Virus record (IMG/VR): IMGVR_UViG_3300045051_000531 | Direction: 5' to 3' (one strand) | DNA: 64,000 bases | Source: a virus | The notes under the pieces: model-generated | Told to the model about the DNA's origin: nothing | What the model saw: the letters and a program-made list of their open reading frames with translations, nothing else | Databases searched by the model: none | Shown: one piece after another, positions 12,455 through 38,572 of the stretch | Position numbering within the stretch: the first letter of the stretch is position 1 | Layout of the letters: every line of letters begins with the position of its first letter | Program-made: the position numbers and the translations under genes

Positions 12455-14326
12455 ATGAGCGGTCTGGATTCACTGATCCCGGCAATGAGCCAGCAGATGC
12501 AGGGCTCAACGACGGCGCCCAACAACAAGCCGTTCATGACGCCGTGGTTGGACTACTCCACCGTCACGGTTCCCGACAACCACGAACTCGTGATGTGGTG
12601 GGCCCAGTACCTCTGGCTCACCGATGGCAACTTCCGTACCGCGATGGAGCGCGTCGCTGCCCACTTCATGACGGTGTTGGAGTTCCCGGATCTGGAGCCC
12701 GATGAGGAATCCAGCTGGAAGGACTTCTTCAACAACGAGATCAACTATCGCCGCGAGCTGATGTCGGTGGCGTACGATTTCCTGGCGTACGGGAACTGCT
12801 TTGTGTCGCCGTACCTGCCGTTCAAGCGGTTCATGCGGTGCCAGAAGTGCTTCCTGGAACAGCCCATCGATCGCGTCGACTACAACCTGGAGTTCTCGGC
12901 TGTGAAGCCGTACGTGAAGTGGCATCGCAAGCACAGCTGCCCGCGCTGTGACGACACCGGGGATTACGAGGTCCTCGATCGTCGGGATCGCACGCTGTCC
13001 AAGATCAAGCTGAACCGCTATGACCCCGCCGAGATCGAGCTCGCCCAGAACCGGTTCAGCCTGCGCAAGGACGTCTACTGGAAGATCCCCGAGGAGACCC
13101 GGCGTGACATCCTGGAGAAAGCCAGGATCCACATCGATGATACCCCGTTGGAGGTTCTCGAAGCCGTTGCCGTGAATGGTCGGCTCTGCTTCGAGGAGGA
13201 CATGATCCTCCACATCGATGAGCCCATCATCTCTGGCGTCAGGTCGCGTGGCTGGGGTCTGCCGCGTTCGATCTCGAACTTCAGGACTGCCTGGCTCCAG
13301 CAGCTCATCAACAAGACCGACCAGGCCGTCGCCATCGACTACACCCTGGGCATGCGCGTCCTGTCGCCGGCTCCGACCCCAGGCGGTCAGGATCCCATGG
13401 TGACCACGGGCATGGAACAGTTCGTGACCCGCATCAAGAGCATGGTGCAGGAACACCGCAACAATCCAGCTAGCTATCACACGGCGCCATATCCGATTCA
13501 GTACCAGTTCCTCGGCGGCGAAGGTGGCACTCTGATGCCGCCCGAGAAGCTGAAGTTCCGTCAGCAGGAGTACCTGAACCAGCTGGGTGTCCCGTTGGAA
13601 TACCACCAGATGAATCTGAGCACGCAGGCCGCCCCGATGGCACTGCGGCTCTTCGAGTCGTACTGGCAGGTCGTCCCGACGGCGTACAACCGTGTCCTGG
13701 ACTGGCTCGTCGATATCCTGAGCAAGGTCTACGGCATGGAGCCGACCAAGGTCAGGATGCAGAAGACCACCATCGCGGACGACATGGAGCGCAAGGCAGT
13801 CCTGCTCCAGCTCATGTCGGCGAACCAGCTCTCCCCACAGACCGCGCTGCAGCCGTTCGGGATCGATGCCCACGACGAGGTCAAGAAGGTCATCCGGCAC
13901 CAGGAGTTCGTGTCGCGTCAGCAGGACGCCCAGGCCGAGAAGGACGCCCAGCGCGAAGAGATGGGTGCCCTGCGCAGCATGACGGCACAGCCCAGCCCGG
14001 CGACCCTGCAGGCCCAGCAGGCCCAGGCTGCCGCTGGGGCGGCTGGTCCAGCGGGCGCCCCCATGGGTGGCATGCCCACAGGCGGCATGCCTGGGGTCCA
14101 GAGCCAGACGCCGTCATCACTTGGCGAGATGTCCGAGCAGGCCCAGGGGATCGCGCAGCAGCTCGTCACCATGGACGACTACAGCCGAAAGGGCGAGCTC
14201 AAGGCGCTGCGCGAGGGCAACAAGGACCTCCACGCCCTCGTCATGCAGAACCTCGACGACCTCCGCAGCCAGGCCAAGAGCCAGGGTGGCCAGATGCTGT
14301 TGAGTGGCGGCATGCCCGCGGCTTAG
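12455..14326 (+). CDS. portal protein (probable)
   Basis: 623 aa, DFLAYGNCFVSP and RGWGLP motifs typical of portals, inserted CxxC..CxxC, position in head module. Confidence 0.65.
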   Translation: MSGLDSLIPAMSQQMQGSTTAPNNKPFMTPWLDYSTVTVPDNHELVMWWAQYLWLTDGNFRTAMERVAAHFMTVLEFPDLEPDEESSWKDFFNNEINYRRELMSVAYDFLAYGNCFVSPYLPFKRFMRCQKCFLEQPIDRVDYNLEFSAVKPYVKWHRKHSCPRCDDTGDYEVLDRRDRTLSKIKLNRYDPAEIELAQNRFSLRKDVYWKIPEETRRDILEKARIHIDDTPLEVLEAVAVNGRLCFEEDMILHIDEPIISGVRSRGWGLPRSISNFRTAWLQQLINKTDQAVAIDYTLGMRVLSPAPTPGGQDPMVTTGMEQFVTRIKSMVQEHRNNPASYHTAPYPIQYQFLGGEGGTLMPPEKLKFRQQEYLNQLGVPLEYHQMNLSTQAAPMALRLFESYWQVVPTAYNRVLDWLVDILSKVYGMEPTKVRMQKTTIADDMERKAVLLQLMSANQLSPQTALQPFGIDAHDEVKKVIRHQEFVSRQQDAQAEKDAQREEMGALRSMTAQPSPATLQAQQAQAAAGAAGPAGAPMGGMPTGGMPGVQSQTPSSLGEMSEQAQGIAQQLVTMDDYSRKGELKALREGNKDLHALVMQNLDDLRSQAKSQGGQMLLSGGMPAA

Positions 14327-19203: not shown

Positions 19204-19920
19204 ATGACGTATTCGGACGCCCTGAACTACTACAACGCCATGCAGGCCCAGGACGACATCGCCCGGGGTCCGGGTGGGCTGCTGGACACGACGGAGGCCA
19301 TGACGGAGTTCCGTCGGCATCTCAATACCCCGGCTCAGCAGCCCAAGCAGCTCACGTTCGGGGACATCTTGCACGGCGCCATCGGTGCCGCCCTCGGGGC
19401 TGGCGTAGCTCGCGGAGCCAGTTCAGCACTTGGGCTCAGTGATCGCTTCTCAGACAAGCTGGAAACCATCGGACTCGGACTCGGAGCTGCTATGAACACA
19501 GGGTACATCAAGAGCGCCGCGGAAGCCGAGGCCTCACTCGCCAAGCAGCTCGACAGGCTCGACGAGCTCGAACCCAAGGTCGCCGCGGCTCGCGTGGATG
19601 CCTTCCGGCTCGGGTTCGTCCGCGGGCTCCAGGACGCCGGGTACTTCGAGAAGGGCGCCGCCGTGATCCCGCTTCCGATCGTCACGCTGGACGCCGCCAA
19701 CATGTTGTCGGTACCTCGCAGCATCGGTAAGGCGATCACGAGTGGTGGCGAAGTCGTCGGTACCGGGCTCGGTGTCGCGGACTCCCTGGATGAGACCGAT
19801 GAAGAGGTCTCCAAGATCAACGTGGAGCGCGCCATCCTGGAAGACAGGCTTGAGCAGCTCAAAGCGGATCGCCGGAATGCCGCGCTGAAAGACATCCTTG
19901 CGAAAAGGCGTGTGAAGTAG
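19204..19920 (+). CDS. glycine-zipper putative internal head protein
   Basis: GAIGAALGAG; KSAA, KVAA, AFRLGF..FEKGAA. Confidence 0.6.
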   Translation: MTYSDALNYYNAMQAQDDIARGPGGLLDTTEAMTEFRRHLNTPAQQPKQLTFGDILHGAIGAALGAGVARGASSALGLSDRFSDKLETIGLGLGAAMNTGYIKSAAEAEASLAKQLDRLDELEPKVAAARVDAFRLGFVRGLQDAGYFEKGAAVIPLPIVTLDAANMLSVPRSIGKAITSGGEVVGTGLGVADSLDETDEEVSKINVERAILEDRLEQLKADRRNAALKDILAKRRVK

Positions 19921-19931
19921 TAGCGTTCGGC

Positions 19932-20282
19932 ATGGTCGACGTACACCCCGCGCTCCGGTTGCCCAAGGGGATCCCGACGTCGCGGTACCGGCCGCCAGCC
20001 CCTGTTGAGATCCCCAAGGGGCTCCAGGAGCTCCCCCTCATCGACAAAGACACCCCGGACTCCGGGAAGGTCCAGGAGCACTGGATCGCCCGAGTTGGCG
20101 TGTTTGATCTCTGCGACGATACCCAACGCGAGGCTTACGAGCGGATCTGGCAGTCGGTATGCGACGGACAGGCCATTATGTCGGAGCACCGGACCGAATA
20201 CGACAGCGCGAAGTGCCGTTTTCTGGCCTTGTTGCGTTGGGCCGACATCAAGTATAAAGTGCCTGACGAACCAAGAGGATAG
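19932..20282 (+). CDS. small hypothetical protein
   Basis: tightly packed ORF with globular C-terminal domain. Confidence 0.55.
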   Translation: MVDVHPALRLPKGIPTSRYRPPAPVEIPKGLQELPLIDKDTPDSGKVQEHWIARVGVFDLCDDTQREAYERIWQSVCDGQAIMSEHRTEYDSAKCRFLALLRWADIKYKVPDEPRG

Positions 20283-20285
20283 AGC

Positions 20286-21179
20286 ATGGTGCTGCCCAAC
20301 ATGGACTGGACCGGCGACGCTGGGTACATCCCGCACGTTGCCTTGGGCGCCCTGGCCGCGGGTGGTGTTGCTCGACTCGGAAAAGGGCTCATCGATCTGT
20401 ACCGTGAGGGCGGCGATGACGACTCCAGGTACCCCGTGAAGGCGATTCGACCGGCGCAGGCCATGATCCCTGTCGAGGTCAGCACAGACGAGGCCAGGGA
20501 GCTCAGGAAGCGTGGTGTCAAGGTCCGCCACGTCCTCGCCAAGCGTGCCGCTGAGGCCCCTCCGAAAACGAATCCGTCGTTCGTGAACGCGCTGCTGTAT
20601 GGCGGTCTCGGTGCTGGCGCCGCCGTGGGTGGCTGGAAGCTCATCGACTACGCCATGGATGCCCAGCGGAAGTCTGAGGCCAAGGCGCGCCTCGACGCGG
20701 TACGGAAGCGCATCGAGAAGATGCTCAACAATGACCCCTACGCGCAGGACGTCGGGGTCTACGAGAGCATGAAGACTGGGGCTGCTCGTCTGCTGAAGGG
20801 CGACGACCTCGTCAAGGAAGCCGGGCTGGCTGACCTCTTCGCGATCGGCGGTCTCCTGGTTGGCGGCGGTGCCACGTTGGCCGGCATTTCAGGCTACCAG
20901 AAGGGTATCGCGTCGAGCCCGTCGCGGGCCAAGGCGAAGGCACTGCAACGTCTCCTGGCCTCGTCGCCGACCGCGGTTCCGCGCGCCACGATGACGCCTT
21001 ATGTTCTCACGGATCCCACGCTGCTCGAAGACGAGGAAGACGAGGACAAGCAGGTCGCCGCGGTGCCAGCGCTCCCGGCTCCGAAGCCGACCTTCGTGCA
21101 GGTCTCCAAGCCGTCGGGAAGCCCGGCTCGACAGGCTGCTGCCACAGGCGCCCAGGCTCCAGTCGCCGTGATGCTCTAA
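20286..21179 (+). CDS. three-helix glycine-zipper protein, putative internal head protein
   Basis: hydrophobic helices separated by KRAA and KEAG. Confidence 0.6.
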   Translation: MVLPNMDWTGDAGYIPHVALGALAAGGVARLGKGLIDLYREGGDDDSRYPVKAIRPAQAMIPVEVSTDEARELRKRGVKVRHVLAKRAAEAPPKTNPSFVNALLYGGLGAGAAVGGWKLIDYAMDAQRKSEAKARLDAVRKRIEKMLNNDPYAQDVGVYESMKTGAARLLKGDDLVKEAGLADLFAIGGLLVGGGATLAGISGYQKGIASSPSRAKAKALQRLLASSPTAVPRATMTPYVLTDPTLLEDEEDEDKQVAAVPALPAPKPTFVQVSKPSGSPARQAAATGAQAPVAVML

Positions 21180-21188
21180 GGGGTACCG

Positions 21189-24100
21189 ATGCCGGCCCCG
21201 ATGGACTCCTTCCTGGACCAGGAACCGGTCGAAGCCGTCAAGTTTCGGCGGTTCGATGACGTCGACACGGAGCGCGACGACATCTACGAGAACGCGAAGC
21301 GCGCCTTCAAGCAGCTCCGTCCTGTTCAGAACGCCACGCACCGACTCGAAGTCGCAGATGTCGACTACGATGGTCCCTTCGAGCCGACGAAGGCTGACGA
21401 GAAAAAGGCTATCCTGCAGGGAACCTCGTTGCACCGTCCGTTGCGCGGAACCGTGCGACTCGTCGACATCGCGTCGAATAAGGTCCTCGACGAACAGAAG
21501 GCCACGCTGGCCAGGATTCCGCATCTGACCTCGCGTGGCCTCTTCATCCGGAACGGGGTGACGTGGTCGCTGCGCAACCAGGCCAGGTTGCGTCCTGGCG
21601 TCTACACCCGGCACCGTGCCGATGGCGGTACCGAATCGCACTTCAACATCAAGCCAGGAACCGGTCGTGGGTTCCGTATCTTCCTGGAGCCCGAGAGCGG
21701 TCTGTTCAAGTTCCAGGTCGGGCAATCCACGACGAAGCTGTACCCCGTGTTGCGGCAGCTCGGTGTCGATGATGACGTCATCAAGCAGGCCTGGGGCGAC
21801 GAGCTCCACAAGAAGAACTTCGTTCCGGAGAGCGGCCACGACATCCAGGACATCCGGAAGCTGGTCCACAAGCTGTCCAGCACGAAGGCTGGTGTGGTGC
21901 CCGATGATCTCCTCAAGGATGCCCTCAAGGATGCCCTGGCTCGTGGCGAGGTCGACGAGGACACCACGGAGCTCACCTTGGGTGAACGGTTCCGGAACCT
22001 GAGCCCGGAGCGGCTCCTGCAGGCCACCACCAAGGTGCTCAAGGTTGCCCGTGGTGAGGACCCCGGTGACAACCGTGACTCCCAGGCCTTCCAGTCCATC
22101 CATAGCTCCGAGGACTACATCCGGGAGCGGCTGAGCCGGGATCAGGCCGGGACGCTGCGTAAGCTGCTCTGGAAGGCTGGCCGCACCGGGAAGCTGGGAC
22201 AACTGCAGCCCGGTGTCATGGACCGCAACCTGGGTTCGATCTTCGAAGGCTCCGGTCTCGCGATGTCCGTCGAAGATATCAACCCGTTCGAGATCCACGA
22301 TCAGCGCCAGGCCATCACCAGGCTCGGCGAAGGTGGCATCAGCTCTGAGCAAGCTGTGAGCCGTGACGCCCGTGGCGTCCAGCCCAGCTACATCGGTGTC
22401 ATCGATGCCGGCCGTGGTCCGGAGTCCAGCAAGCTGGGGCTCGATCTGCGCGTCACCGATGCCGCGCTGAAGGGATCAGATGGGCAGCTCTACACCACGG
22501 TAACGAATCGCGATGGGAAGCCTGAAGTTGTGTCCGCGCGGACACTTTCCACGAAGACGGTAGCGTTCCCTGGTGAGATGGAGCGGGACGCCAAGCGGAT
22601 CCCAGCTATTCGTGACGGCGACATCACGTACGTCACCAAGGACGAAGTCGACTACGTCATCCCGAATCCCAACGCGTTGATGTCGCGGGCCACGGCGATG
22701 ATTCCGTTCCCGGAGTCCGTGAAGGGGCAACGGCTTCTCATGGGCGCCCGGATGACTGCTCAGGCGATGCCGCTGCAGGAACCCGAGGCTCCGCTCGTCC
22801 AGACCGCGGACTCCGACGGGGTCAGCCTGCACGAAAAGATGGGAGCCACCATTGGTGCCGTTCGGGCTCCAGCTGCTGGTGTCGTCACCAAGGCGGACGC
22901 CGACGAGATCCAGCTGTCGTTCCCTGACGGGACCAAGAAGACGTTCTCGCTGTACAACAACTACCCGACGGCGCGGAAGACGGTGGTCCACAACACCGCG
23001 CTGGTGAAACGTGGCGACGTCGTCCAGCCCGGGCAGATGCTCGCCAAGTCGAACTTCACCGATGACAAAGGTGTCGCCGCTATCGGTCGGAACCTCCGGG
23101 TCGCCTTCATGGCGGCTGAGGGTGACACCATCGAAGACGCCTTCGTGATCTCGGAGAGCGCTGCGAAGAAGCTGACCTCGGAGGCCCTGTACAAGTCCGA
23201 CCTCGATCTCAGCGAGATCTCGTCGACGAAGAAGGCCGACTATCAGGCTATCTACGCAGATCGCTTCTCTCCGGATCAGTACGCCAAGATCGATGATGAT
23301 GGCGTCATCCAGGTCGGTGCCGAGGTCCGACCTGGGGATCCGTTGATCCTGGGTTACGGCACCAAGGAGAAGCGGGCTGTTGGCGCCCTGATGAATAGCC
23401 CGCGGGCGATGCACAGCGATCGGGCCCAGACCTGGGAGCACCACGCTCCTGGTGTCGTCACCGACGTCGTCAGGACTCGTGGTGGCATCAAGGTCGCCGT
23501 GAAGTCCTACGACGCCATGCGGGCCGCCGACAAGCTGAGCGGTCGGCACGGCAACAAGGGTGTCATCGCAGCGATTCGCCCCGATGAGCAGATGCCCGTG
23601 GACGCCAACGGGGAACCCGTCGAAGTCATCATGAACTCGCTGGGCATCGTGAGCCGCACGAATCCGGCGGCGCTGGCTGAGGCCATGCTCGGCAAGGTGG
23701 CCCAGCGTACCGGGAAGCCTTACGTGGTTCCTGGGTTCAGCGGGAACGATGTCACCGAGTTCGCCCTGCAGGAGGCCCTGAAGAACGGGGTCATCACGCA
23801 GAACGACAAGGGTGAACTCGTCGACACCGAGACGCTCACGGATCCCAGGGATGGTCGCAAGATCCCCGGGGTCTTCACGGGCAACATGTACTTCATGAAG
23901 CTCCAGCACATGGCGGAGTCCAAGCTGGGTGCCCGTGATACCAGTACATACACCACGGAAGGCTTCCCCGCAAAGGGCGGCAAAGAGGGCAGCAAGCGGA
24001 TCGCGATGCTGGACACCCACGCCTTGCTCGCCGCTGGTGCCACGGACTTCATCAAGGACGCCAAGCTGGTCCGCGGTCAGCGGAACGATGATTACTGGCG

Positions 24101-25595
24101 CGCCATCCGTGCTGGCGAGACCCCTATCGTTCCGACAGAGAGCTTCGCCGACGAAAACTTCAAGACGTTGCTCAAGGCGGCTGGGGTCAACGTGCGTGAG
24201 AAGGGGACCAGGAGCCAGCTGGCCCCGCTGCTGGATCGTGACGTCGACGCCTTGGCACAGCACGAGATCGATAACCCGGGCACCTTCGATTTCGAAAGCA
24301 TGGAGCCCATCAAGGGTGGCCTCTTCGATGTCAGCAAGACCGGCGGCGCCGAAGGCAACCGGTTCACCAAGATCACGCTGCCCCAGAAAATCCCACATCC
24401 CTTGTTCGTGGAGCCGATTCAGCGGCTCCTCGGGCTCACGGGTAAAGAGTTCGAGGCGGTTCTCTCGGGCAAAGAGGAGCTCCACGGTAAGACAGGCCCA
24501 GGTGCCGTTGAGGCCGCGCTCTCAGGCATCGACGTGGACCGCGACATCGCGCTCGCCAAGGAACAGATCCGTACTGGCCGTGGGCAGAAGCGCGACGACG
24601 CCGTGAAGCGTCTGAACTATCTCACCGGGTTGAAGAAGACGGAAACCACACCGAGCGATCTCTTGATCAGCAAGATCCCGGTGATCCCGCCGCGGTACCG
24701 CCCCGTGACGAAGAGCCGTGGCACCGACATGGTGCATGATCTCAACTACCTGTACCACGATCTCCTCGAGGCCCGGAACAACTACAGCGACGCCACCAAG
24801 GAGTTCGGTGATGCCGGCGATGAGTACCTCACGATGTGGAACGCGGTTCGGGCGATCAGCGGGGTCCGGGATCCCGTGAACCCGAAGACCGCTGAGCAGG
24901 GCGTCAAAGGGGTCCTCCGGTACGCCATCGGCGTCGGCGACACCCCCAAGGGCGCCTTCTACCAGCGCAAGGTCATCGGTACCGCAGTGGACACCGTTGG
25001 TCGTGGCGTCATCGCGGCGGACAAGGATCTCGACATCGACGAGGTCGGTCTTCCCAAGGACATGGCGGTTAAGATCTTCAGGCCGTACGTGATCCGTCGG
25101 TTGACCAGGATGGGACTCCCGGCAACGGAGGCCATCGAGGCGATCAAGACGGAGACCCCGATGGCGATGAAGGCGCTGGAAGAGGAGATGAAGGCGCGCC
25201 CCGTGGTCTACAACCGGGCCCCGGCGTTGCACCGCTACGCCTACGTGGGCGCCTGGGCCAAGCTGCGTGACGACGACGCCATCGGGATGCCGTACCATAC
25301 CCTGAAGGGTCTTGGCGGCGATTTCGACGGTGACCAGATCAACATCCATGTCCCATCGACTGAGGAAGCCGTTGCCGACGCCACTGATAAGTTGATGCCG
25401 TCCAAGAACCTGTTCTTCACGGGGTCCTTCGAAACCCACCTGGAGCCCGTGCAGGACTACCTCGCCGGACTCTACCTTGCCAGCACCCCGAAGTCCGGAG
25501 AAGCTGTACGGACCTTCGCGAGTGCCGAGGAAGCCAAGGCTGCCTACGCTCGTGGTGAGATCAGCGCCAGAACCCCGATCAGGATACTGACCTAA
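21189..25595 (+). CDS. rpoB/rpoC: DNA-directed RNA polymerase: beta subunit fused to N-terminal half of beta' (both double-psi barrels)
   Basis: beta motifs QRLLMGARMTAQAMPL, GDTIEDAFVISE, DKLSGRHGNKGVI, YFMKLQHMAESKL; beta' motifs IPVIPPRYRP, YNRAPALHR, GGDFDGDQINIHVP. Confidence 0.95.
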   Translation: MPAPMDSFLDQEPVEAVKFRRFDDVDTERDDIYENAKRAFKQLRPVQNATHRLEVADVDYDGPFEPTKADEKKAILQGTSLHRPLRGTVRLVDIASNKVLDEQKATLARIPHLTSRGLFIRNGVTWSLRNQARLRPGVYTRHRADGGTESHFNIKPGTGRGFRIFLEPESGLFKFQVGQSTTKLYPVLRQLGVDDDVIKQAWGDELHKKNFVPESGHDIQDIRKLVHKLSSTKAGVVPDDLLKDALKDALARGEVDEDTTELTLGERFRNLSPERLLQATTKVLKVARGEDPGDNRDSQAFQSIHSSEDYIRERLSRDQAGTLRKLLWKAGRTGKLGQLQPGVMDRNLGSIFEGSGLAMSVEDINPFEIHDQRQAITRLGEGGISSEQAVSRDARGVQPSYIGVIDAGRGPESSKLGLDLRVTDAALKGSDGQLYTTVTNRDGKPEVVSARTLSTKTVAFPGEMERDAKRIPAIRDGDITYVTKDEVDYVIPNPNALMSRATAMIPFPESVKGQRLLMGARMTAQAMPLQEPEAPLVQTADSDGVSLHEKMGATIGAVRAPAAGVVTKADADEIQLSFPDGTKKTFSLYNNYPTARKTVVHNTALVKRGDVVQPGQMLAKSNFTDDKGVAAIGRNLRVAFMAAEGDTIEDAFVISESAAKKLTSEALYKSDLDLSEISSTKKADYQAIYADRFSPDQYAKIDDDGVIQVGAEVRPGDPLILGYGTKEKRAVGALMNSPRAMHSDRAQTWEHHAPGVVTDVVRTRGGIKVAVKSYDAMRAADKLSGRHGNKGVIAAIRPDEQMPVDANGEPVEVIMNSLGIVSRTNPAALAEAMLGKVAQRTGKPYVVPGFSGNDVTEFALQEALKNGVITQNDKGELVDTETLTDPRDGRKIPGVFTGNMYFMKLQHMAESKLGARDTSTYTTEGFPAKGGKEGSKRIAMLDTHALLAAGATDFIKDAKLVRGQRNDDYWRAIRAGETPIVPTESFADENFKTLLKAAGVNVREKGTRSQLAPLLDRDVDALAQHEIDNPGTFDFESMEPIKGGLFDVSKTGGAEGNRFTKITLPQKIPHPLFVEPIQRLLGLTGKEFEAVLSGKEELHGKTGPGAVEAALSGIDVDRDIALAKEQIRTGRGQKRDDAVKRLNYLTGLKKTETTPSDLLISKIPVIPPRYRPVTKSRGTDMVHDLNYLYHDLLEARNNYSDATKEFGDAGDEYLTMWNAVRAISGVRDPVNPKTAEQGVKGVLRYAIGVGDTPKGAFYQRKVIGTAVDTVGRGVIAADKDLDIDEVGLPKDMAVKIFRPYVIRRLTRMGLPATEAIEAIKTETPMAMKALEEEMKARPVVYNRAPALHRYAYVGAWAKLRDDDAIGMPYHTLKGLGGDFDGDQINIHVPSTEEAVADATDKLMPSKNLFFTGSFETHLEPVQDYLAGLYLASTPKSGEAVRTFASAEEAKAAYARGEISARTPIRILT

Positions 25596-26683
25596 TGCTC
25601 GGACATCTTTACATGACCAAGGTGGCCGTCGATTGGACGGACCCAGCTGAGGTCCAGCAGTTCCGGGCCGGGGCCGAGAAGGCGTATTCGGACGCCGTAA
25701 AGTCTAAAGATTTCGCCGGGATCAACGAAGCCCTGAACCGGATCCGGACGTACGAACACAAGACGAAGCAGAAGATGGTTCCGAAGGACGGCTACGACGG
25801 GTTACTGCGCGTCATGCGGATGCTGCACGTCGACGCCGTACGTACGCGCGACGCAACGAAGCTCAGCGCGTTGCAGGATCAGATCGAGTTCCTGGAGTCC
25901 CACACCAACAAGAAGTGGGAGTCCCCCAACGTCAATGCACGCGGCAAGGGTCCATCCGGCGGCACGCTTCCGGATCCCAAGGCGCCGGCTCCGACACCAG
26001 CGCCGAAGCCAGCCGCTCCGGCACCGCCAGCAACGGGTAGCAGCGCCGCCCCGAAAACACCCATGGTTGATTCGGGAAAGTTCAAGGAGCTCAAAGAGCG
26101 GCTCAAGGCCGAGGCCAAGGCTAAGCTGGGCCCAGGCCCAGTCGCCCCAGCGAGTCCGGCTGCGCCGCCCCCGCCTCCTGGTGGCGGAACCGCGGCTAAG
26201 GTCCCGCCAGCACCGGCTCGTGGTGGGGCCGGGGCTCCTCCAGCGCCTCCTGGTGGCGGAACTCCGGCGCCCCGTAGTCGGGCTGCTGCACCGCCGCCGC
26301 CGCCGAAGCCGCCAGTCGCTGCCCCGCTTGGCGGCGGTCCAAAGCCTCCCAGCGGCGGCACAGCTCCGCGTAGTCGACGTGGGTTCGGAGCGCTGATGCG
26401 CGGCGCGCTGCCGTACGCCGGAGCCTTCGCGGCTGGTGGGGCTGCTGGTTACGGGGCCAAGAGTTACCTGGGCCCCACGTCTAAGAGCGACTCTACTGAG
26501 ACCACAGCAGAGAAGCCCGGTATGCTGGACCAGGTCACGAATTACGTCAAAGAGAACCCCTGGACGTCGGCTGGTATCGGGGTCGGAGCCGCAGGAACCA
26601 CAGCCCTGCTGGCTTACCTGCTGAGCCAGGGCAAAAAGCCGGATGAGCGGCCTGACATGGCTGAGGACGTCGTCCTCGCGTAG
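25595..26683 (+). CDS. Pro-rich membrane-anchored putative internal head protein
   Basis: TKVA leader; C-terminal GMLDQVTNYVKENPWTSAGIG anchor homologous to that of 14396-14989. Confidence 0.6.
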   Translation: MLGHLYMTKVAVDWTDPAEVQQFRAGAEKAYSDAVKSKDFAGINEALNRIRTYEHKTKQKMVPKDGYDGLLRVMRMLHVDAVRTRDATKLSALQDQIEFLESHTNKKWESPNVNARGKGPSGGTLPDPKAPAPTPAPKPAAPAPPATGSSAAPKTPMVDSGKFKELKERLKAEAKAKLGPGPVAPASPAAPPPPPGGGTAAKVPPAPARGGAGAPPAPPGGGTPAPRSRAAAPPPPPKPPVAAPLGGGPKPPSGGTAPRSRRGFGALMRGALPYAGAFAAGGAAGYGAKSYLGPTSKSDSTETTAEKPGMLDQVTNYVKENPWTSAGIGVGAAGTTALLAYLLSQGKKPDERPDMAEDVVLA

Positions 26684-26724
26684 CCGCTGTTCACGTAACG
26701 AACGACACATAGGATATCAACACC

Positions 26725-27450
26725 ATGGACAACAAGATCGCCGCTCGCCTGTTCCGCCGCGGGCTTGACGAGAAACTCGCTGAATACCGGAAGTCAGCTT
26801 TCGTCCCGATGGGGACCCCGGCTGAGAAGACCGGCCAGCAGGCCCCTGGCCCTGGTGGGGCCCCCGTGGATCCCGCCGCAGCCGGTGGTGCTCCTATGGA
26901 CCCCATGGCGGCTGGAGCCCCCATGGATCCCATGGCGGCCATGGGTGGCGCCCCTCCCATGGATCCCGCGGCTGGTGGCGCCCCTCCGATGGACCCCATG
27001 GCTGCCATGGGTGGTGCCCCTCCTGCGGACCCCGCAGCCGGTGGCGCCCCGCCCATGGACCCCATGGCCGCGCTCGGTGGCATGCCGCCGCTGCCGGCTG
27101 ATGCCGGCGCCGGTGGCGAGGCCCCGCCTCCGCCACCCCCGCTGGAAGGCGCTGGCGGTGAAGATGGTGGCGGCGGTGGCCTCACCAAGGCTGACGCGGA
27201 GACCGTCGACACGATCACGCGGCGCACTATGGACATCGTTCGGGAGACCCTGGACATGGTCGGGAAGACCAAGCAGCCCAAGGACGGCGGCTCCGCCGCT
27301 GCCCCGGCTGAGCCCGACCCGAAGTCGCAGCCTGGCCCGGTGACTGGTCAGCCCGGCTTCGACCCCAGCATGCTGTCTGGCCCGCTCAAGATGGCTTCGA
27401 CCATCCTGGCTCGCCAGCTCAAGAAGCGCGCAGAAGCGCCCCGGAAGTAA
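26725..27450 (+). CDS. GGAPPMDP-repeat protein
   Basis: MDNKIAA..EKLA..RKSA leader, tandem peptide repeats. Confidence 0.65.
   Translation: MDNKIAARLFRRGLDEKLAEYRKSAFVPMGTPAEKTGQQAPGPGGAPVDPAAAGGAPMDPMAAGAPMDPMAAMGGAPPMDPAAGGAPPMDPMAAMGGAPPADPAAGGAPPMDPMAALGGMPPLPADAGAGGEAPPPPPPLEGAGGEDGGGGGLTKADAETVDTITRRTMDIVRETLDMVGKTKQPKDGGSAAAPAEPDPKSQPGPVTGQPGFDPSMLSGPLKMASTILARQLKKRAEAPRK
26854..27090 (+). repeat. degenerate in-frame tandem repeat encoding GGAPPMDP(M/A)AA
   Basis: repeated ggtggcgcccctcc(c/g)atgga(t/c)ccc units. Confidence 0.8.
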
Positions 27451-27451
27451 G

Positions 27452-29323
27452 ATGCCCAAGCTGGGCCGCCTCGCGTTCCGCAAGGTAGCCGAGGCTGCTG
27501 AGATCCCTCAGCAGCCCGCTGGGCTGTTTGATCGGATGCTGCAGCAGCACGGCGCCGAGCAGGGCCAGGGGCGGTACACTGGTAGCGGTTCCGTGGGTCC
27601 CTCGCAACAGCAGGGCCAGGGGTTCGTCACCGGCCAGCAGGCCTTGTTGGAGGGTGCCCAGTCGGCGGCTGGACCGCTGGGGGTCTCCCTGGCTATGCTG
27701 GGGATGCCGTGGATCCAGCAGGCCACAGCCGGAACCGGCATCGATCTCGCGAAGCCCTGGCAGATGGGGTACGGCGGCAGCCCGAGGGCGTTCCAAGAGC
27801 AGGGTCGTGTCGCGGCCCAGATGATGTCGGCTCAGCTGACCTCCATGGGTGACTCCGGGCGCCAGCTCGCCGTCGCGGCCATCGAGCAGCTCGGCAAGAC
27901 CGGGATCCCGGTTGAGGGAGTCATCAATTACCTGAAGACGGCGGATCCCAACACGGTCGGAACTATCGTACAGCAGCTCTCCCTGCAGTTCCCGCAGGTC
28001 CAGGCGATCATGTCGCGGCTCGACCCGGCGTTCATCAGCGACTTCACGCCGATCGCGCAGGCCACGTACTTCCAGAACAACGGCGATTTCGACGAAGCCC
28101 TGTTCCAGAAGACCATGCAGCGGTTCCAGTCGGATTACCGTTCCGGCAAGTACGGGCAGGTTCCCGCTCAGATCGCGGCGCACTCCGTGGCGTTCGTAGC
28201 TGAGAAGGGCCTCCCGCCTGGTGCCATTCCCGATGCGTCGAAGAACGTGGCTCAGGCCGCGAACTCGCTCGTCGACCGTGGCCTGGCCCCGAGCTTCGGA
28301 GCCGCGATGGAGCTCGCGCAGTCCATCAGCCCGGAGGTCATGCAGAACCCGAAGTCGGTTCAGCAGTTCGCGAACTACACCGATAACCTCGCCAGGCGCG
28401 GCTTCCTGAGCCGGGATCAGATCTACTCGGCGGCCCAGTACGCCATGCATAATGGTCTCGACGTGGCCTCCACGATGACGGCTGTCGGGCATAGCGGGCG
28501 ACTGAAGCGCCTCATGGGGCAGCACGCCGGCAAGCTCCCGGATCTCGCGGCGACATCGCTGGCCGGATTCCAGAAGTCCGAGCAGGCCTCCGTGCTGGGG
28601 GCCGCGCGTCAGATCAGCAAGTCGCTTCGTCACACCATCGATACCGCGATCTCCAAGGGTGACGTCGCTGCGTTGACCAGGGTCTACAAGCAGGTCGCCA
28701 GCAACCCGGACATCCTCAACATTGCTCGGCAGAACCCGAACGTCGGAGTCAGCTTGGCGAAGCAGATGTCGGCGAAGAACCCGGCGATGCTGGGACAGCT
28801 GATGACGGCGCAGTTCGCAGAGCAGGGCAAGAATGATCCCTCGATGCGGAAGTTGCTGCGGAACCCCACCGAGATCAGGCGGCGCATCATCCAGCAGGAT
28901 CTCAGCGGGCTGTCACCTGCAGCGCGCGACTTCATGCTGCGGAACGGTGGCGCCGACGCCGCAGCTGTCCTGGCTTCGAAGTCTCCGGACTACGAAGGTG
29001 CTCCGCTGCCGCCCGGTGTCGACGAGGTCAAGGCGTCGCGCATCGGACTCCAGTACCCGGATGCCCAGTCGGACCGTCCAGCTCCACTGGTGCGCGGTGA
29101 GGCTGAGGTGCCTGAGAACCTGGCCGAACCGGTCCGCACGGGTTCCCGCCCGGCTGCGTTGCCGCGCGGCAACTTCGTACCCGATGGGGTCGAACAGCCG
29201 CCCGGGCTCGGTGAGCTCGCGTTCGGTGATCGTAGCGTGGTTGACCCGAATCGCGGGGTCCGGGCGCCGCCGACGAAGCAGCCCTGGAAGCCGACGAAGC
29301 CTGCCCTGACCCGCGGGATCTAG
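27452..29323 (+). CDS. helical Gln/Ala-rich virion protein (623 aa)
   Basis: MPKLGRLAFRKVAE leader; no Cys seen. Confidence 0.6.
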   Translation: MPKLGRLAFRKVAEAAEIPQQPAGLFDRMLQQHGAEQGQGRYTGSGSVGPSQQQGQGFVTGQQALLEGAQSAAGPLGVSLAMLGMPWIQQATAGTGIDLAKPWQMGYGGSPRAFQEQGRVAAQMMSAQLTSMGDSGRQLAVAAIEQLGKTGIPVEGVINYLKTADPNTVGTIVQQLSLQFPQVQAIMSRLDPAFISDFTPIAQATYFQNNGDFDEALFQKTMQRFQSDYRSGKYGQVPAQIAAHSVAFVAEKGLPPGAIPDASKNVAQAANSLVDRGLAPSFGAAMELAQSISPEVMQNPKSVQQFANYTDNLARRGFLSRDQIYSAAQYAMHNGLDVASTMTAVGHSGRLKRLMGQHAGKLPDLAATSLAGFQKSEQASVLGAARQISKSLRHTIDTAISKGDVAALTRVYKQVASNPDILNIARQNPNVGVSLAKQMSAKNPAMLGQLMTAQFAEQGKNDPSMRKLLRNPTEIRRRIIQQDLSGLSPAARDFMLRNGGADAAAVLASKSPDYEGAPLPPGVDEVKASRIGLQYPDAQSDRPAPLVRGEAEVPENLAEPVRTGSRPAALPRGNFVPDGVEQPPGLGELAFGDRSVVDPNRGVRAPPTKQPWKPTKPALTRGI

Positions 29324-29326
29324 GCC

Positions 29327-29551
29327 ATGCAGGTCATCCTGAACCATCCGAACGGTAAGCAGTACCGGCTCCCGGCCACACAGGTCGTCGTCTACAATGA
29401 CGACGGCCACCCAGTCGCGGTGACCTACGAGCACGGCGGTCTCCTGATCCACTCAGACGCCAGCCACAACGACTTCGACCGTACCCTGTTCTCGCTCAAG
29501 GTAGCCTCGATCGGCCCGATGCCGAAGGCTGAGGAGGCCAGCGGTGGCTGA
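29327..29551 (+). CDS. small protein coupled to beta'(C) gene
   Basis: 74 aa, overlaps start of 29544 by 8 nt. Confidence 0.55.
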   Translation: MQVILNHPNGKQYRLPATQVVVYNDDGHPVAVTYEHGGLLIHSDASHNDFDRTLFSLKVASIGPMPKAEEASGG

Positions 29552-31430
29552 CGTCACCACAGTCGGAACCCTGTTGATCAACGACGCCCTCCCTGAGGAG
29601 CTCCGGAAGGATCAGCACAAGCTCGACAAGAAGGGCGTCCACAAGCTCTTCATGGAGCTCGCTGAGAAATACCCGGACCGCTACAAGGAGGTCCTGAAGT
29701 CGTTGTCTGATGTCGGCAGGACCGCGGTGTGGACCGAAGGGCTCTCTGTGAGCCTGGCTGGGCTGCGGAAGTCGAAGGCCAAGGGGGCCATCCTGGGACC
29801 CGTGATGCAGCGTGTCCGAGCCATCATCGATGACGACACCCTGGATCCCAAGGAGCGCAAAGCCGCCATCATCAACGAGCTCATCCCGATCTCGGGTCCG
29901 CTCCAGGATGCCGTGTTGGAAGAGGCCCGCTCGGAGAACTCGCCGTTCGCCGTTCAGATCGATTCTGGTGCTCGTGGCAACAAGAGTGCCTTTGCGTCGC
30001 TTCGTGGCGCCGACCTGCTCACCACAGATCAGCGTGGTGACCTGATCCCGGTTCCGTTGGAGCACAGCTACGCCGAAGGTTTCACACCTGCGGAGTACTT
30101 CGCGGCGAGCTATGGTCAGCGGAAAGGCCAGCTGAGCGTCAAGCTGGCCACAGCTGACGCCGGGTTCCTGAACAAGCAGCTCGTCAATGCGGCGCACCGT
30201 CAGGTCATCACACGTGAGGTCCCCGAGCCTCGCCGGCTCCTGACCGGGCTTCCTGTCGACATCAACGACAAGGACAACATCGGAGCTGTGCTGGCGACAC
30301 AGATCGGTGATTACCCAGCGGGTACGGTCATCACCGATCGGATCCTTGAAGATCTCAAGGACAAGGATCACGACGAGATCCTGATCCACAGCCCGCTGAC
30401 GGAAATCAGCGAGGACGGCGGCATCAGCGCCTGGGCGGCTGGTCGGAGAACCCGCCAGGGCCTCCACGTCATCGGCGACAACATCGGGATCCCGGCTGCG
30501 CAGGCCATCGGTGAGCGGCTCAGCCAGGGTTCCCTGAACGCGAAGCACAGCGCCGGTGTCGGTGACCGGATCAAGAAGTCCGGTATGGAGTACATCAACC
30601 GGCTCATCCAGGCCCCCGAACACTTCCCCGAGGCTGGTCCCTTGGCGAACGCCGATGGCATCGTCAGCGACATCCGGGTCGCCCCGCAGGGTGGTCACTA
30701 CATCAAGATCGGCGAGGAAGAGCACTACGCCGGTCCCGACCTCGGTGTCACCGTCAAGGTCGGCGACAACGTCGAGCAGGGCGACGACCTCACCGATGGG
30801 GTCCCTCACCCAACCCAGCTCATCCGGCTGCGTGGGATCGGCGAGGCCCGCCGGGTCTATACGTCAGCGCTGCGGGACGCCCTGAACGATTCCGGGGCTC
30901 CGGCGCACCGCCGGAACGTGGAATCCGTGGTGGCTGGTCTGATGAACTGGGCCGAGATCCAGGATCCAGATGGTGTCGGTGACGCGATTTACGGCGACGT
31001 GGTCCCCTATGGGCGCCTCGCGGCGACCTACGAGCCCCGGCCTGATGCCAAGGAAGCCGACCCTGAGAAGCTCGTCGGGAACTACCTCGAAGAGCCCGCC
31101 CTGCACTACACCCCTGGTACCCGGATCACCAAGAAGGTCGCCAAGCGCCTCAAGAAGTGGGGCATCAACGGGGTCCGGGCGCACGTCGATCCCCCGGCCT
31201 TCGAACCGTACATGGTCCGTGGTCTCCACAGCGTTTACCACGACCCTGACTGGAAAGTCCGGCAAGCCGGCTTCTACACGGCCAGGGCCTTCGAGAAGTC
31301 CGTGCACCGCGGACTGGAGTCCGACACACAGTCCACCAGCTTCGTTCCGGCCCTGACGACCCCGAAAGTGCTTGGGCGTTCCCTGGGGACCCTGGGCAAG
31401 TACGGTGGCACCCCAGGCCAGAGCCGGTAA
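29544..31430 (+). CDS. rpoC: RNA polymerase beta' C-terminal subunit (bridge helix, trigger loop)
   Basis: DSGARGN; bridge helix YAEGFTPAEYFAASYGQRKG..ATADAGFLNKQLVNAA; trigger loop IPAAQAIGERLSQGSLNAKHSAG. Confidence 0.92.
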   Translation: MADVTTVGTLLINDALPEELRKDQHKLDKKGVHKLFMELAEKYPDRYKEVLKSLSDVGRTAVWTEGLSVSLAGLRKSKAKGAILGPVMQRVRAIIDDDTLDPKERKAAIINELIPISGPLQDAVLEEARSENSPFAVQIDSGARGNKSAFASLRGADLLTTDQRGDLIPVPLEHSYAEGFTPAEYFAASYGQRKGQLSVKLATADAGFLNKQLVNAAHRQVITREVPEPRRLLTGLPVDINDKDNIGAVLATQIGDYPAGTVITDRILEDLKDKDHDEILIHSPLTEISEDGGISAWAAGRRTRQGLHVIGDNIGIPAAQAIGERLSQGSLNAKHSAGVGDRIKKSGMEYINRLIQAPEHFPEAGPLANADGIVSDIRVAPQGGHYIKIGEEEHYAGPDLGVTVKVGDNVEQGDDLTDGVPHPTQLIRLRGIGEARRVYTSALRDALNDSGAPAHRRNVESVVAGLMNWAEIQDPDGVGDAIYGDVVPYGRLAATYEPRPDAKEADPEKLVGNYLEEPALHYTPGTRITKKVAKRLKKWGINGVRAHVDPPAFEPYMVRGLHSVYHDPDWKVRQAGFYTARAFEKSVHRGLESDTQSTSFVPALTTPKVLGRSLGTLGKYGGTPGQSR

Positions 31431-31457: not shown

Positions 31458-33755
31458 ATGCCTGCACCCAATGAGACCGCACTGGAGAAGACGTTCTCGG
31501 ACCTGGCTTACAGCCATCTCCGCGACAAGAGCCAGGCGCTGCTGGACTACCTCGTCGGCTTCCAGCTCCTCAAGCAGGAGAACGATGGCCAGCGTGCCGT
31601 CGGCATCTTCGGCTTCGAGATCGACGAGGACTACTACTACGCCCCGATCTTCTTCCTGAACGGCGAGATTCGCGGCCTGGACTGCCTGTACTCGGTGAAG
31701 TCAGACATCTTCATGCCGCTGACCGATGACTGGGTCAACACGGTCATCAACCGTCGCCAGCTCTCCCTGGGCGAGAAGGACACCAGGTCCCGCGCCGAGC
31801 GCGGCACCCGTGTCCCGAACTACAGCCGGCTCAAGATCATCCCGGGCGGTGGCGGTGGCACCTCGCTGAAGCTGGGATCCGCTCAGCTCCAGAAGCTGAG
31901 CTCCGCCATGATGGGCGAGAACGCCGATCTGGCCGCGGTCCGCAAGATCGATCTGACCCACGAGATCGCTGCTGTCGGCGCCGGCCCGTTCTTCAAGGCT
32001 GCCATGGACCGGAACCCCCGGTTCCGCGCCGCCTTCGAAGACTTCGGCTACAACTACCTGGATCTCGCTGGGGCCCCAGTTCAGCAGGAGAAGGTCGCCG
32101 CTGAGGACGCCGTTGTCCTGATCAACTCGGTCACCGACGAAGGCGTCGACGAGCTCACCGACGAGCAGCGCACCACGGTTCTCGAAGGCGGCACTGCCGT
32201 CATCGACAATCGTCCCGAGGTCGCCAAGGCGATCCTGTACCGAAAGGAAGTCGAGCGCGAGCTCGAGAACCCGACTACGGGCGCCCTCTACGATGTCCTG
32301 TGGTCAGACGGTGCCGTGGCCCCAGCCCTGGTCTGCCCGATCGCCAATGGCGAAAACGAGGTCTTCGTCTTCCGTCCCAACGATGGCGACAAGTACTGCA
32401 GCATCGATCGCCGCAAGGTCTTCGTGACCCGGATGTACAGCGCCAACGAGCTCAACGACTGGCTCAAGAAGAACACCAAGGAAGCCTCGGCCATCAAGCC
32501 GCAGGAAGTCGTCGTCTTCATCGGTTGCGAGGGCGACGCTACCGCAGCGTTCTGCATCTCCGATGTTCGCACCGGGATCGATGGCATCACGGTGGCCACC
32601 GTGAATGATCGGCACCACATGGACGCCGGGAACAACTGCAGCAGCGCTCCGTGCATCAGCAGTGGCTACGCTCGCGGCAACAACGGCGACCCGGAGCCGA
32701 ATCAGTACAACAACCTGCCGATCGATGGGATGTGTGATCGGGGAACCCGTCAGCGCGATCCCACGGTCTTCACCAAGGAAGTCATCATCACCGAGGCCGG
32801 TGGTCGCTCGCCTCGGTTCTCCAAGACGCAGGTCATCGTCAACGACAAGCACTTCTACGCTCTGAAGGTGAACACCTTCAAGCTGGTCTCGACCAGCGAG
32901 CTCTACGAGGGCGAAGTCGAGAAGTACGGTGAGCCCAGGAAGGACGCCCAGCTCAAAGAGTCCGACTTCGGCTGCTACTCCACGGTCTACGAGGCCCTCG
33001 ACAAGGTCGCGGCTGAGTTGAAGACTTGGAAGACGGGTCGCGATCTCACCGTGAAGACCGCGGGTCTCCTGGAGACCGTGGCTTCGGAGCGCGACGCCCT
33101 GGCTGTTCTGATGCAGAAGCTCGGGATGTCGGAGACCGATGCGCGCGTCGTCATCGCTGAGGCTGGTCCAACGGTTCAGTACTACAAGCTGAGCCCGACC
33201 ACCAAGGCCGCGGCTGCCATGCTGGATCTCCCTGAGATCAGGGACACCGATCTCGGTGGTTTCATGAACAGCTACCACCAGTCCCAGGTGCCCTACGCGA
33301 CCACGAACAAGCGGGCCCCCGAGGACAACCGCGAGTTCTACCGGTACTACAGCCCGTTCGCGGGCGGCGCCCCGGACAGCGAGGGCGGCAATGATGGCGG
33401 CGAGGACACCTTCGGGATCGTCGACGAAGCCGCCAAGACGGGTGAGAAGGAAGTCTTCGATGCCGCCGCGTTGGGTTCCCTGATCAAGGCCCACAACCCG
33501 ACGGATCTCGTGGATCGCTTCCTGCCCACGATCACCTCAGGCATGGATCGCATCGGCCGCATGCTGTTCCTGATCTACTGGCACTACGAGGACTTCGAGG
33601 AGCGCTACGGCGAGGACGAGCTCAGCGAGTTCATGGACAACCTGCGCACCGTCTTCGAGCAGCTCGGCGACATCGTGATCTTCGCCAAGAAGCGCACCCT
33701 GGCTGGGGACCCCGAACACTACGGTCTCGGGGCCGCCCCGAACATGGAGGGCTGA
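31458..33755 (+). CDS. prohead core-type protein (765 aa)
   Basis: strongly GC3-biased ORF between RNAP and head genes; KVAA, KTAG, KAAA motifs. Confidence 0.55.
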   Translation: MPAPNETALEKTFSDLAYSHLRDKSQALLDYLVGFQLLKQENDGQRAVGIFGFEIDEDYYYAPIFFLNGEIRGLDCLYSVKSDIFMPLTDDWVNTVINRRQLSLGEKDTRSRAERGTRVPNYSRLKIIPGGGGGTSLKLGSAQLQKLSSAMMGENADLAAVRKIDLTHEIAAVGAGPFFKAAMDRNPRFRAAFEDFGYNYLDLAGAPVQQEKVAAEDAVVLINSVTDEGVDELTDEQRTTVLEGGTAVIDNRPEVAKAILYRKEVERELENPTTGALYDVLWSDGAVAPALVCPIANGENEVFVFRPNDGDKYCSIDRRKVFVTRMYSANELNDWLKKNTKEASAIKPQEVVVFIGCEGDATAAFCISDVRTGIDGITVATVNDRHHMDAGNNCSSAPCISSGYARGNNGDPEPNQYNNLPIDGMCDRGTRQRDPTVFTKEVIITEAGGRSPRFSKTQVIVNDKHFYALKVNTFKLVSTSELYEGEVEKYGEPRKDAQLKESDFGCYSTVYEALDKVAAELKTWKTGRDLTVKTAGLLETVASERDALAVLMQKLGMSETDARVVIAEAGPTVQYYKLSPTTKAAAAMLDLPEIRDTDLGGFMNSYHQSQVPYATTNKRAPEDNREFYRYYSPFAGGAPDSEGGNDGGEDTFGIVDEAAKTGEKEVFDAAALGSLIKAHNPTDLVDRFLPTITSGMDRIGRMLFLIYWHYEDFEERYGEDELSEFMDNLRTVFEQLGDIVIFAKKRTLAGDPEHYGLGAAPNMEG

Positions 33756-37394: not shown

Positions 37395-38572
37395 GTTTCG
37401 CCAAGCAGGCCTCGGAAATCGTCACGGATCGTGTCGCGTGTCTCCTGTTGGCCAAGGAGGCCGAGGCTGTCGTCATCGATCCGGATCGTGAGCTCCAGGA
37501 CGAAGCCACTGAGGACGAGGTCCGGAAGTCGAAGCGGAACCGACTGCTCTGGGCCCTCGGCGGACTCGCGGCGCTTGGTGGCGGCGGGTACCTGGCCCAT
37601 CGTACCGGGATGCTGGACGCGATCGGTGATAAGTTCAGGTCCAAAAATCCTGACACCCAACCAGGCGTGCTCCAGCGCGGTGCTGAGGCCGTATCGCAGG
37701 TCCCAGCTACCGCGTCGCTCGCACTGGGTGCTCTGAACGCATCGCGTGGTTCGCGTCGGATCTCCGAGTTCCTGCCCACAGGCCCGCGGGCACTGCGTCG
37801 GCATGCCCCAGGCAACCCGGCGGACTCCCTGCACGGTACCCTCGGAATGGCCGATCAGCTGCGCGAGGATGTACAGCGGACTCCAACGACCGGTGCTGGT
37901 GATGGGATCTGGTCGACCGTGAGCGGAAACCGTGAGCGGGCCGAATTGCGTGACCGTATGCATAGGATTTTCGAGGGCCTCCCGAAGGGCACGAACCAGG
38001 CGCAGCTCGCCGATCGATTCACGCAGATGTTCGATCGTCAGGGAGCCGCTCCAACTGGGCTTCAGGAAGTCCTGTGGAATCGTGCACGGGCCACGCCCGG
38101 CCCCGGTTCGATGACGCTAGACGATATCGACAAACTCGAGCGCACCGTCGCTGATACCACGCGAGGCGGCCGGTTCGGACGTCTCTTCGCGAATCGTCAC
38201 GTCGATCAAACCGCGCTCAGGCTTCTCGAAGAAGGCCTGCAGAACGACATCGCTGCAGCGAAAGCTGGCGATGCCACCGCGAAGGCGCGCATCGAACGCG
38301 TCGCACGCGAGGACATGGGCTTCGACCCGAAGATGCGAGCAAAGGGAGACCCAGCTATCAGTGAGGCTGACGCGGCTGAAAAGCTGCGCGGCACGCTGCG
38401 GCAGTTCCGTACGCTGCCGACACGCCCTGGTCGTAGTGTTGCGGGTGTACTGCGCCGCGGGCTTCTCCCGCTCGCGATTACACATGGTGTCGCCCCTGTG
38501 ACCGCTGGTGCGCTGCGCTGGTCCGGGCTCGACGCACAACCAGCTCCGAAACCGGAAGAGCAGAAACCGTGA
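37391..38572 (+). CDS. membrane-anchored putative internal head protein
   Basis: MSFAKQAS..AKEAE leader; LLWALGGLAALGGGGYLA TM. Confidence 0.6.
   Translation: MSFAKQASEIVTDRVACLLLAKEAEAVVIDPDRELQDEATEDEVRKSKRNRLLWALGGLAALGGGGYLAHRTGMLDAIGDKFRSKNPDTQPGVLQRGAEAVSQVPATASLALGALNASRGSRRISEFLPTGPRALRRHAPGNPADSLHGTLGMADQLREDVQRTPTTGAGDGIWSTVSGNRERAELRDRMHRIFEGLPKGTNQAQLADRFTQMFDRQGAAPTGLQEVLWNRARATPGPGSMTLDDIDKLERTVADTTRGGRFGRLFANRHVDQTALRLLEEGLQNDIAAAKAGDATAKARIERVAREDMGFDPKMRAKGDPAISEADAAEKLRGTLRQFRTLPTRPGRSVAGVLRRGLLPLAITHGVAPVTAGALRWSGLDAQPAPKPEEQKP

Follow-up and report, generated by a model that had tools for sequence, protein, structure and literature searches.

RNA polymerases (RNAPs) that travel in the virion are known from N4-like phages, from phiKZ-type phages and from Thermus phage P23-45, whose authors propose that the shape of the virion RNAP (vRNAP) is suited to passage through the tail. 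The vRNAPs of the Schitoviridae contain 0.00075% Cys against a background of 0.865%, a suppression attributed to transit via the tail and a periplasm equipped with disulfide-forming enzymes (PMC11445570, PMC3715699). The published scheme for jumbo phages provides for an RNAP without sigma or a sigma without RNAP, and the jumbo-phage RNAP review mentions neither cysteine nor zinc. Here we analyze a two-chain RNAP of the bacterial type and a sigma factor, all devoid of Cys, that are encoded in a 64,000-nucleotide stretch of viral DNA (IMG/VR record IMGVR_UViG_3300045051_000531; the whole stretch is called the window below). Among cultured phages, Salmonella phage Arash (OQ632216) comes closest, with 31% and 27% identity for the two RNAP chains. 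The literature found on this RNAP family consists of the Arash paper only (PMC10585845); a paper on a “moraphage” was considered and rejected, as it concerns a different lineage without RNAP. It is already known that Arash particles contain this RNAP and that Cys is suppressed in N4-type ejection proteins. What is new is the suppression of Cys in a β/β′ RNAP with its sigma, carried as far as the stepwise loss of both zinc sites; it extends to the sigma factor and to neighboring uncharacterized proteins.

The first RNAP chain (21189-25595, + strand; 1468 residues) consists of β fused to the N-terminal half of β′ (β-β′N), with a match to Pfam Rpb2_6 (E 3.5e-51) followed by Rpb1_1 and Rpb1_2. Its catalytic DFDGD motif, at chain residue 1378 (25320-25334, + strand), was read directly from the letters and aligns with the NADFDGD motif of bacterial β′. 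The second chain (29544-31430, + strand; 628 residues, GTG start) is the C-terminal half (β′C); it matches Pfam Rpb1_5 and, by phmmer, residues 666-1170 of Mycobacterium tuberculosis β′ (E 2e-31). Phmmer comparisons of the window chains with bacterial β′ gave E-values of 1e-31 to 1e-43, and an AlphaFold model of β′C has a mean predicted local distance difference test score (pLDDT) of 86 and a template modeling (TM) score of 0.66 against Thermus thermophilus β′. The window enzyme is a two-chain bacterial-type multisubunit RNAP (β::β′N + β′C). Located inside the tail and baseplate genes is a gene for a sigma-70-family factor of 256 residues (62851-63621, + strand; Sigma70_r3, E 2.6e-9), whose best match in Arash is Gp10, the sigma detected in Arash virions. 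The original prediction on this DNA held that both RNAP chains and the sigma factor lack Cys altogether, and exact counts from the open reading frames (ORFs) bear it out, with 0 in 1468, 0 in 628 and 0 in 256 residues.

Few structural features of bacterial RNAP are as conserved as the two zinc sites of β′, and the second one (Zn-II) is considered necessary for folding and assembly. The same prediction described the β′ zinc-binding domain (Zn-I) as reduced and the second site as lacking its four Cys, and alignments led us to the same conclusion. All that is left of Zn-I is a remnant of the form GGLFD...TGG.EG without Cys (GGLFDVSKTGGAEGNRFTKI, chain 1 residues 1043-1062; 24315-24374, + strand). 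In this region, the alignment to Bacillus subtilis β′ covers residues 27-47 and picks up again at chain residue 143, a gap spanned by just 30 residues of the window, showing that a zinc-binding-domain stretch of ~96 residues has been cut to ~30. The same short form is found in Arash and in Vibrio phage D69, and Zn-I is absent from every member examined, including all 76 β-β′N homologues described below, each of which has at most 2 Cys. Zn-I was therefore lost earlier than Zn-II.

The ligands of Zn-II have been replaced in the window β′C by P/V, E, S and A: the M. tuberculosis Zn-II cysteines (hdC, LTC, GVCatCYG) sit opposite the VPEP stretch, E286, S294 and A297 of the window protein. The first ligand position now reads ITREVPEPRR (30207-30236, + strand); the M. 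tuberculosis segment hdCqterg aligns here, and the column holds DC in both Arash and D69. The former LTC...GVCxxCYG motif has become LTE...GISAWAAG (HSPLTEISEDGGISAWAAGR, β′C residues 282-301; 30387-30446, + strand). The β′C model has a pLDDT of 94-97 across residues 210-310, and the former Zn-II module is thus still predicted to fold.

The absence of Cys might reflect chance or the composition of a GC-rich, Cys-poor genome. The window has a G+C content of 62-69% and carries nearly every gene on the + strand, and its Cys content is indeed low overall, with 95 Cys in 17,954 residues (0.53%) in the other + strand genes. However, even a uniform model at this background gives P ~1.5e-5 for 0 Cys in 2096 residues. 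TGY is not scarce in the DNA as such, since this trinucleotide is frequent out of frame (88 occurrences in the chain 1 gene and 29 in the β′C gene) and has no in-frame occurrence as a codon in either. Yet 9 of 24 other large window proteins are also Cys-free, whether ejected or not, which makes the count from a single genome only moderately remarkable. It is conservation across the family rather than the window count that makes the zero significant, and this point is decisive.

We therefore rely on the family, which comprises 968 representatives at E < 1e-30. The β-β′N homologue set reaches down to 38% identity, and the sigma orthologues share 36-62% identity. Cys is absent from 84 of 85 intein-free β′C homologues at ≥50% identity and from 61 of 76 intein-free β-β′N homologues, the remainder having 1-2. 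The β′C domains (n = 254) contain 81 Cys in 156,734 residues, 52 of which are Zn-II ligands, leaving 0.0185% of nonligand Cys; β-β′N has 19 in 111,958 residues (0.017%), and all 61 sigma orthologues have none in 15,186 residues. The comparison over orthologues by which the original prediction was to be checked hence yields ~0.02% nonligand Cys family-wide for the polymerase and 0 of 15,186 for sigma. In contrast, the inteins that interrupt homologue genes contain 2.13% and 2.27% Cys, and the residue following β′C inteins (+1) is Ser in at least 75 of 84 cases and never Cys. As the inteins are Cys-rich and their host chains nearly Cys-free, Cys avoidance acts on the mature polypeptide. A suppression kept over more than 280,000 homologue residues, down to 38% identity, with inteins in the same ORFs at more than 2% Cys, effectively refutes chance or composition as the cause, and we give that explanation practically no credence.

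Genes of the same locus served as internal controls. The gene that follows β′C (31458-33755, + strand), a weak match to Arash Gp218, encodes a 765-residue protein with 9 Cys, and its orthologues in two related contigs, L007 and L008, have 8 and 4. The prohead proteases of the window, L007 and L008 contain 5, 6 and 12 Cys, respectively. Both contigs keep the gene order of the window, and their RNAP chains are Cys-free.

Insertions are common among the relatives. There are 84 inteins or homing-endonuclease inserts in β′C relatives, at three hot spots (approximately residues 200, 210 and 330), and 49 inserts in β-β′N relatives; insert-bearing homologues include P0029, P0047, P0339 and P0136. The β′C inteins start with Cys and end with ...SN, followed by Ser. 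The RNAP genes of the window are intein-free.

A megablast search of the phage collection with the RNAP gene gave no match, and relatives were found by tblastn only. As in the window, Arash and Vibrio phages D69, D148 and D181 have a β::β′N fusion, a separate β′C and a sigma gene among the structural genes; their RNAP genes adjoin the portal gene, Zn-I is deleted, and Cys is nearly purged (1 Cys in the 1525 residues of Gp206, none in sigma Gp10). The four Zn-II cysteines, lost from the window enzyme, persist in Arash and D69 as the sole Cys of β′C, and the genes that lie between the two chains are different ones, partly on the opposite strand. Arash (L001) and D69 (L002, OZ195729) have a single β′ catalytic domain per genome, indicating that one enzyme serves all phases. 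In each of them, a Sigma70_r3-bearing sigma gene is found at ~11-12 kb inside the structural genes.

Mass spectrometry (MS) of Arash virions (PMC10585845) detected the β-β′N chain Gp206 more than any other protein, with 128 unique peptides and 3516 spectra. The β′C chain Gp216 was represented by 40 unique peptides and 1210 spectra, the helicase Gp217, which has 0 Cys, by 38 and 1148, and sigma Gp10 by 24 and 467, at 100% coverage (PMC10585845). Enzymes resembling carry-over or likely contaminants show 2-3 peptides in the same data, and the second Arash sigma, Gp196, which contains 3 Cys, is absent from the virion MS table (PMC10585845). The second-highest spectral count, 1952 spectra, belongs to Gp4 (L009 2528-5821; 1097 residues, 0 Cys), possibly one more internal or ejected protein in which Cys is suppressed.

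The family retains a record of how the zinc sites were lost. Arash Gp216 and its Vibrio counterpart D69_0264 have exactly four Cys, all of them Zn-II ligands, and 13 metagenomic relatives have the four Zn-II cysteines and essentially no others; in all, Zn-II is retained in 15 basal relatives. In a β′C tree rooted with Arash and D69, the Zn-II-bearing lineages are basal, and two Zn-less clades come next. The first (107 representatives) has x-Y/F-D at the ligand columns (the GYD pattern). The second (134 representatives) goes from PA and SDS patterns to E/D-S-A/S, and the window falls in its ESA group. The tree requires two changes for the loss of Zn-II, and an approximately unbiased (AU) test is compatible with a single Zn-less clade (p 0.36).

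In the sister GYD clade, C-terminal domains lengthen β′C to 1000-1770 residues (P0333, P0277 and P0281). These long chains are nearly Cys-free, with 0 Cys in 54 of 91, and their extensions include NUDIX together with an SNF2-type helicase domain, or DUF5661 and DUF4269. We tested whether the extensions correspond to the downstream 765-residue gene of the window and found no correspondence, so this idea was rejected. Upstream of the portal gene, the window has genes of their own for a Cys-free NUDIX protein and a DUF5661 protein (6982-8520 and 4674-5396), and these two proteins may be partners of the RNAP.

The region between the portal and prohead protease genes of phages commonly encodes head-internal proteins. 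In the window, the portal gene (12455-14326, + strand) was identified by blastp to Arash Gp204 (E 9e-52), and the prohead maturation protease gene (38569-39855, + strand; 5 Cys) by matches to the PHROG 18299 head maturation protease (E 7.7e-9) and to Arash Gp222 (E 9e-36). The RNAP genes are located between them on the same strand, tightly packed with genes for Cys-free uncharacterized proteins, and are thus embedded in the late/structural module.

From orthology, gene context and analogy, we infer packaging and ejection in the window phage. We consider it probable, though by a good distance not certain, that the RNAP and the tail-module sigma are packed in the capsid and delivered to the host and that selection for this purpose purged their Cys residues. 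We assign the window to a ~190-kb phage of the Arash/Vibrio-D69-like group, which has a single two-chain bacterial-type RNAP plus its own sigma-70-family factors. The polymerase and the tail-module sigma would be late products, like the proteins of head and tail, and would enter the capsid to reach the next host together with the DNA. There, they could start transcription without the host enzyme. Until then, the packaged cargo would wait extracellularly in oxidizing conditions, and it would probably cross the tail channel at least partly unfolded, past periplasmic disulfide-forming enzymes. On such a route, oxidation, cross-linking and loss of zinc without reloading would turn thiols and zinc-thiolate clusters into liabilities, and selection would therefore have purged the mature chains of all Cys. 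Deletion of the β′ zinc-binding domain would have come early in the history of the family. Zn-II would have kept the last four Cys to be tolerated, until their replacement in the lineage of the window phage, where ordinary packing probably holds the local fold. The original prediction had suggested just such a virion-packaged cellular-type RNAP, possibly accompanied by its sigma. The MS data on the Arash orthologues, the position between portal and protease, the analogy to N4-like phages and the family-wide Cys suppression in both chains and sigma all lend it indirect support.

Several observations weigh against this proposal. The virion MS support comes from an orthologue at ~30% identity, and the Arash virion preparation was not clean, with 116 proteins that include DNA ligase and primase (PMC10585845). 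The zinc argument is also affected, as a non-thiolate metal site may exist in the window β′C, given the conserved His, Glu and Asp residues of its HSPxTExSEDGG stretch. Finally, the lack of Cys may mark residence in the virion instead of ejection.

That last point leads to an alternative in which the RNAP is packaged but not functionally ejected, its Cys having been lost through long residence in an oxidizing environment, with early transcription performed by the host RNAP or by newly made phage RNAP. The nine other large Cys-free proteins of this structural window would fit, as would the Cys-free portal, protease and capsid proteins of P23-45, and the Arash authors themselves raise the carry-over of abundant infection proteins (PMC10585845). 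However, virion proteins of the tail and baseplate tolerate Cys, with 9 in Arash Gp8, 4-6 in the portals and 8 in the product of window gene 56504-58981, whereas the RNAP, the sigma and the interleaved proteins have at most ~0.02%, the level of published ejection-operon proteins. Moreover, an enzyme packed at high copy number together with a sigma would have no obvious use unless delivered. We regard packaging without functional ejection as unlikely.

The enzyme might alternatively not be a virion component in the clade of the window, the loss of Cys and zinc being an adaptation of an intracellular phage RNAP. Such an enzyme could gain resistance to oxidative or thiol-reactive stress, to zinc limitation or to a phage or host factor that attacks the zinc-thiolate sites of the host RNAP. 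The available virion data are limited to a Zn-II-bearing orthologue, and the loss of Zn-II postdates the split from Arash-like phages; in addition, the vRNAP domain of P23-45, of the two-barrel family, also has 0 Cys, and its host is a thermophile. The conserved portal-protease gene order nevertheless argues against a purely intracellular role. Cys suppression is also older than the loss of Zn-II, being common to the Arash orthologues found in virions, and it extends to the tail-module sigma and to flanking uncharacterized proteins, which is hard to reconcile with an RNAP-specific stress. An intracellular adaptation thus appears quite improbable.

Packaging and delivery remain our favored explanation, but how far Cys loss can diagnose ejection is a separate question. 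The original prediction had treated the missing Cys and zinc sites as the hallmark of an enzyme that is injected, with the vRNAP of N4 as its precedent. The precedent holds, since N4 gp50 has 0 Cys in 3500 residues, and gp50, gp51 and gp52 together have 0 in 4294. In P23-45, the fusion of tape measure protein and vRNAP, gp96, likewise has 0 in 5002, in a phage whose portal, protease and capsid proteins are Cys-free as well. The generalization fares less well: the phiKZ vRNAP (NC_004629) has 16 Cys in 2614 residues (0.61%), compared with 33 in 2850 (1.16%) for the nonvirion RNAP (nvRNAP) of the same phage, and the RNAP of Arash virions retains the four Zn-II cysteines, both facts counting against a diagnostic use of Cys loss. 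The nvRNAP keeps both zinc motifs, as gp55 has a Zn-I-like CxC...CxxC pattern (residues 58, 60, 73 and 76) and gp74 a Zn-II-like set. The virion set of phiKZ lacks the Zn-I pattern, but the CxxC of gp80 resembles Zn-II, a further point on the opposing side; the virion subunit gp180 contains 2 Cys. We therefore rejected Cys-lessness as a universal mark of injected RNAPs, and the hallmark claim stands in part only, as a strong tendency among ejected RNAPs rather than a rule.

Most proteins encoded around the two RNAP chains are Cys-free as well. Three ORFs precede chain 1 (19204-21179, + strand) in the same order as in L007 and L008 and encode proteins of 238, 116 and 297 residues with 0, 3 and 0 Cys, respectively. 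The 238- and 297-residue products (19204-19920 and 20286-21179) contain glycine-zipper-like hydrophobic stretches. Four ORFs lie between the two chains (25595-29551, + strand); by ORF reading, they encode proteins of 362, 241, 623 and 74 residues, each with 0 Cys. The first of these is P/A-rich with a glycine zipper at its C terminus. Three Cys-free proteins with glycine-zipper-like hydrophobic segments flank the β-β′N gene (19204-19920, 20286-21179 and 26500-26683), one segment matching DUF883_C, and they may be membrane-inserting virion proteins. The 241-residue protein (26725-27450), rich in A, P and G, contains 18 Met, lacks Cys, Trp and His and is made up of GGAPPMDPMAAM-like Met-rich PMDP repeats; relatives have Met-rich counterparts with 19-26 Met at the same position. 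This Met-rich protein and the ~560- to 620-residue protein are conserved and Cys-free in L007 and L008. For ORFs lying between the RNAP chains or in their surroundings, searches of Pfam and PHROGs returned no family except DUF883_C, NUDIX, DUF5661 and the protease. Farther downstream, within the head/tail module, 43674-45578 encodes a tetratricopeptide repeat (TPR) and GT41 (O-GlcNAc-transferase-like) glycosyltransferase with 14 Cys. The two genes just before it show an extreme G+C content at third codon positions (0.94-0.95) and likely encode major structural proteins.

The proposal has a fuller version, to which we give somewhat less than an even chance. In it, a complete sigma-dependent RNAP holoenzyme without Cys or structural zinc could be kept in the capsid, pass along the tail as a thread and regain its fold in the host free of cofactors. 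If this is correct, it would be the first β/β′ RNAP shown to function with both conserved zinc sites gone. Accessory enzymes may travel with the holoenzyme, as NUDIX and SNF2-helicase domains are fused to β′C in the sister clade. The family offers a natural series for studying the role of the zinc sites: some members keep Zn-II, and in others it has given way to GYD or to the patterns PA, SDS and ESA. The notion that ejected phage proteins avoid Cys would be extended from single-subunit N4-type enzymes to a cellular-type RNAP with its sigma, and conserved Cys suppression could then predict ejected cargo from sequence alone in uncultured phages. In the window, such a predictor would single out the Met-rich and glycine-zipper proteins interleaved with the RNAP, as well as the NUDIX protein.

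In the fuller version, the window system would represent an “ejectable transcription kit” distinct from the solutions of both N4 and phiKZ. In the N4-like phages (N4 gp50-gp52, DEV gp71-gp73), the RNAP is packaged and ejected with the DNA; the window counterpart resembles them in the suppression of Cys in the RNAP and neighboring proteins and in the location of the gene in a structural module. In contrast, N4 gp50 is a single-subunit T7-like enzyme of ~3500 residues from a podovirus that uses hairpin promoters and no sigma, whereas the window encodes a two-barrel bacterial-type RNAP and a sigma-70-family factor and had ancestral zinc sites to lose. The phiKZ/AR9-type vRNAPs (phiKZ gp178, gp149, gp180 and gp80) are likewise multisubunit β/β′-like enzymes, present in virions and injected; the phiKZ virion set also lacks the Zn-I pattern and has less Cys than its nonvirion paralogue. 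Unlike the window, phiKZ divides β/β′ among four or five chains, the enzyme exists there as two paralogues and sigma is absent, and its RNAP is far less similar in sequence to the window enzyme than bacterial β′ is. The window enzyme falls outside the phiKZ type, as β is fused to β′N and a sigma is present, and Arash and D69 have one set of RNAP genes; as phages with both an RNAP and sigma factors of their own, they also lie outside the published jumbo-phage scheme. P23-45 gp96 shares with the proposed system a virion-delivered two-barrel RNAP with 0 Cys, but in gp96 the polymerase and the tape measure make up one chain, which has no clamp, does not depend on sigma and serves a phage of a thermophilic host.

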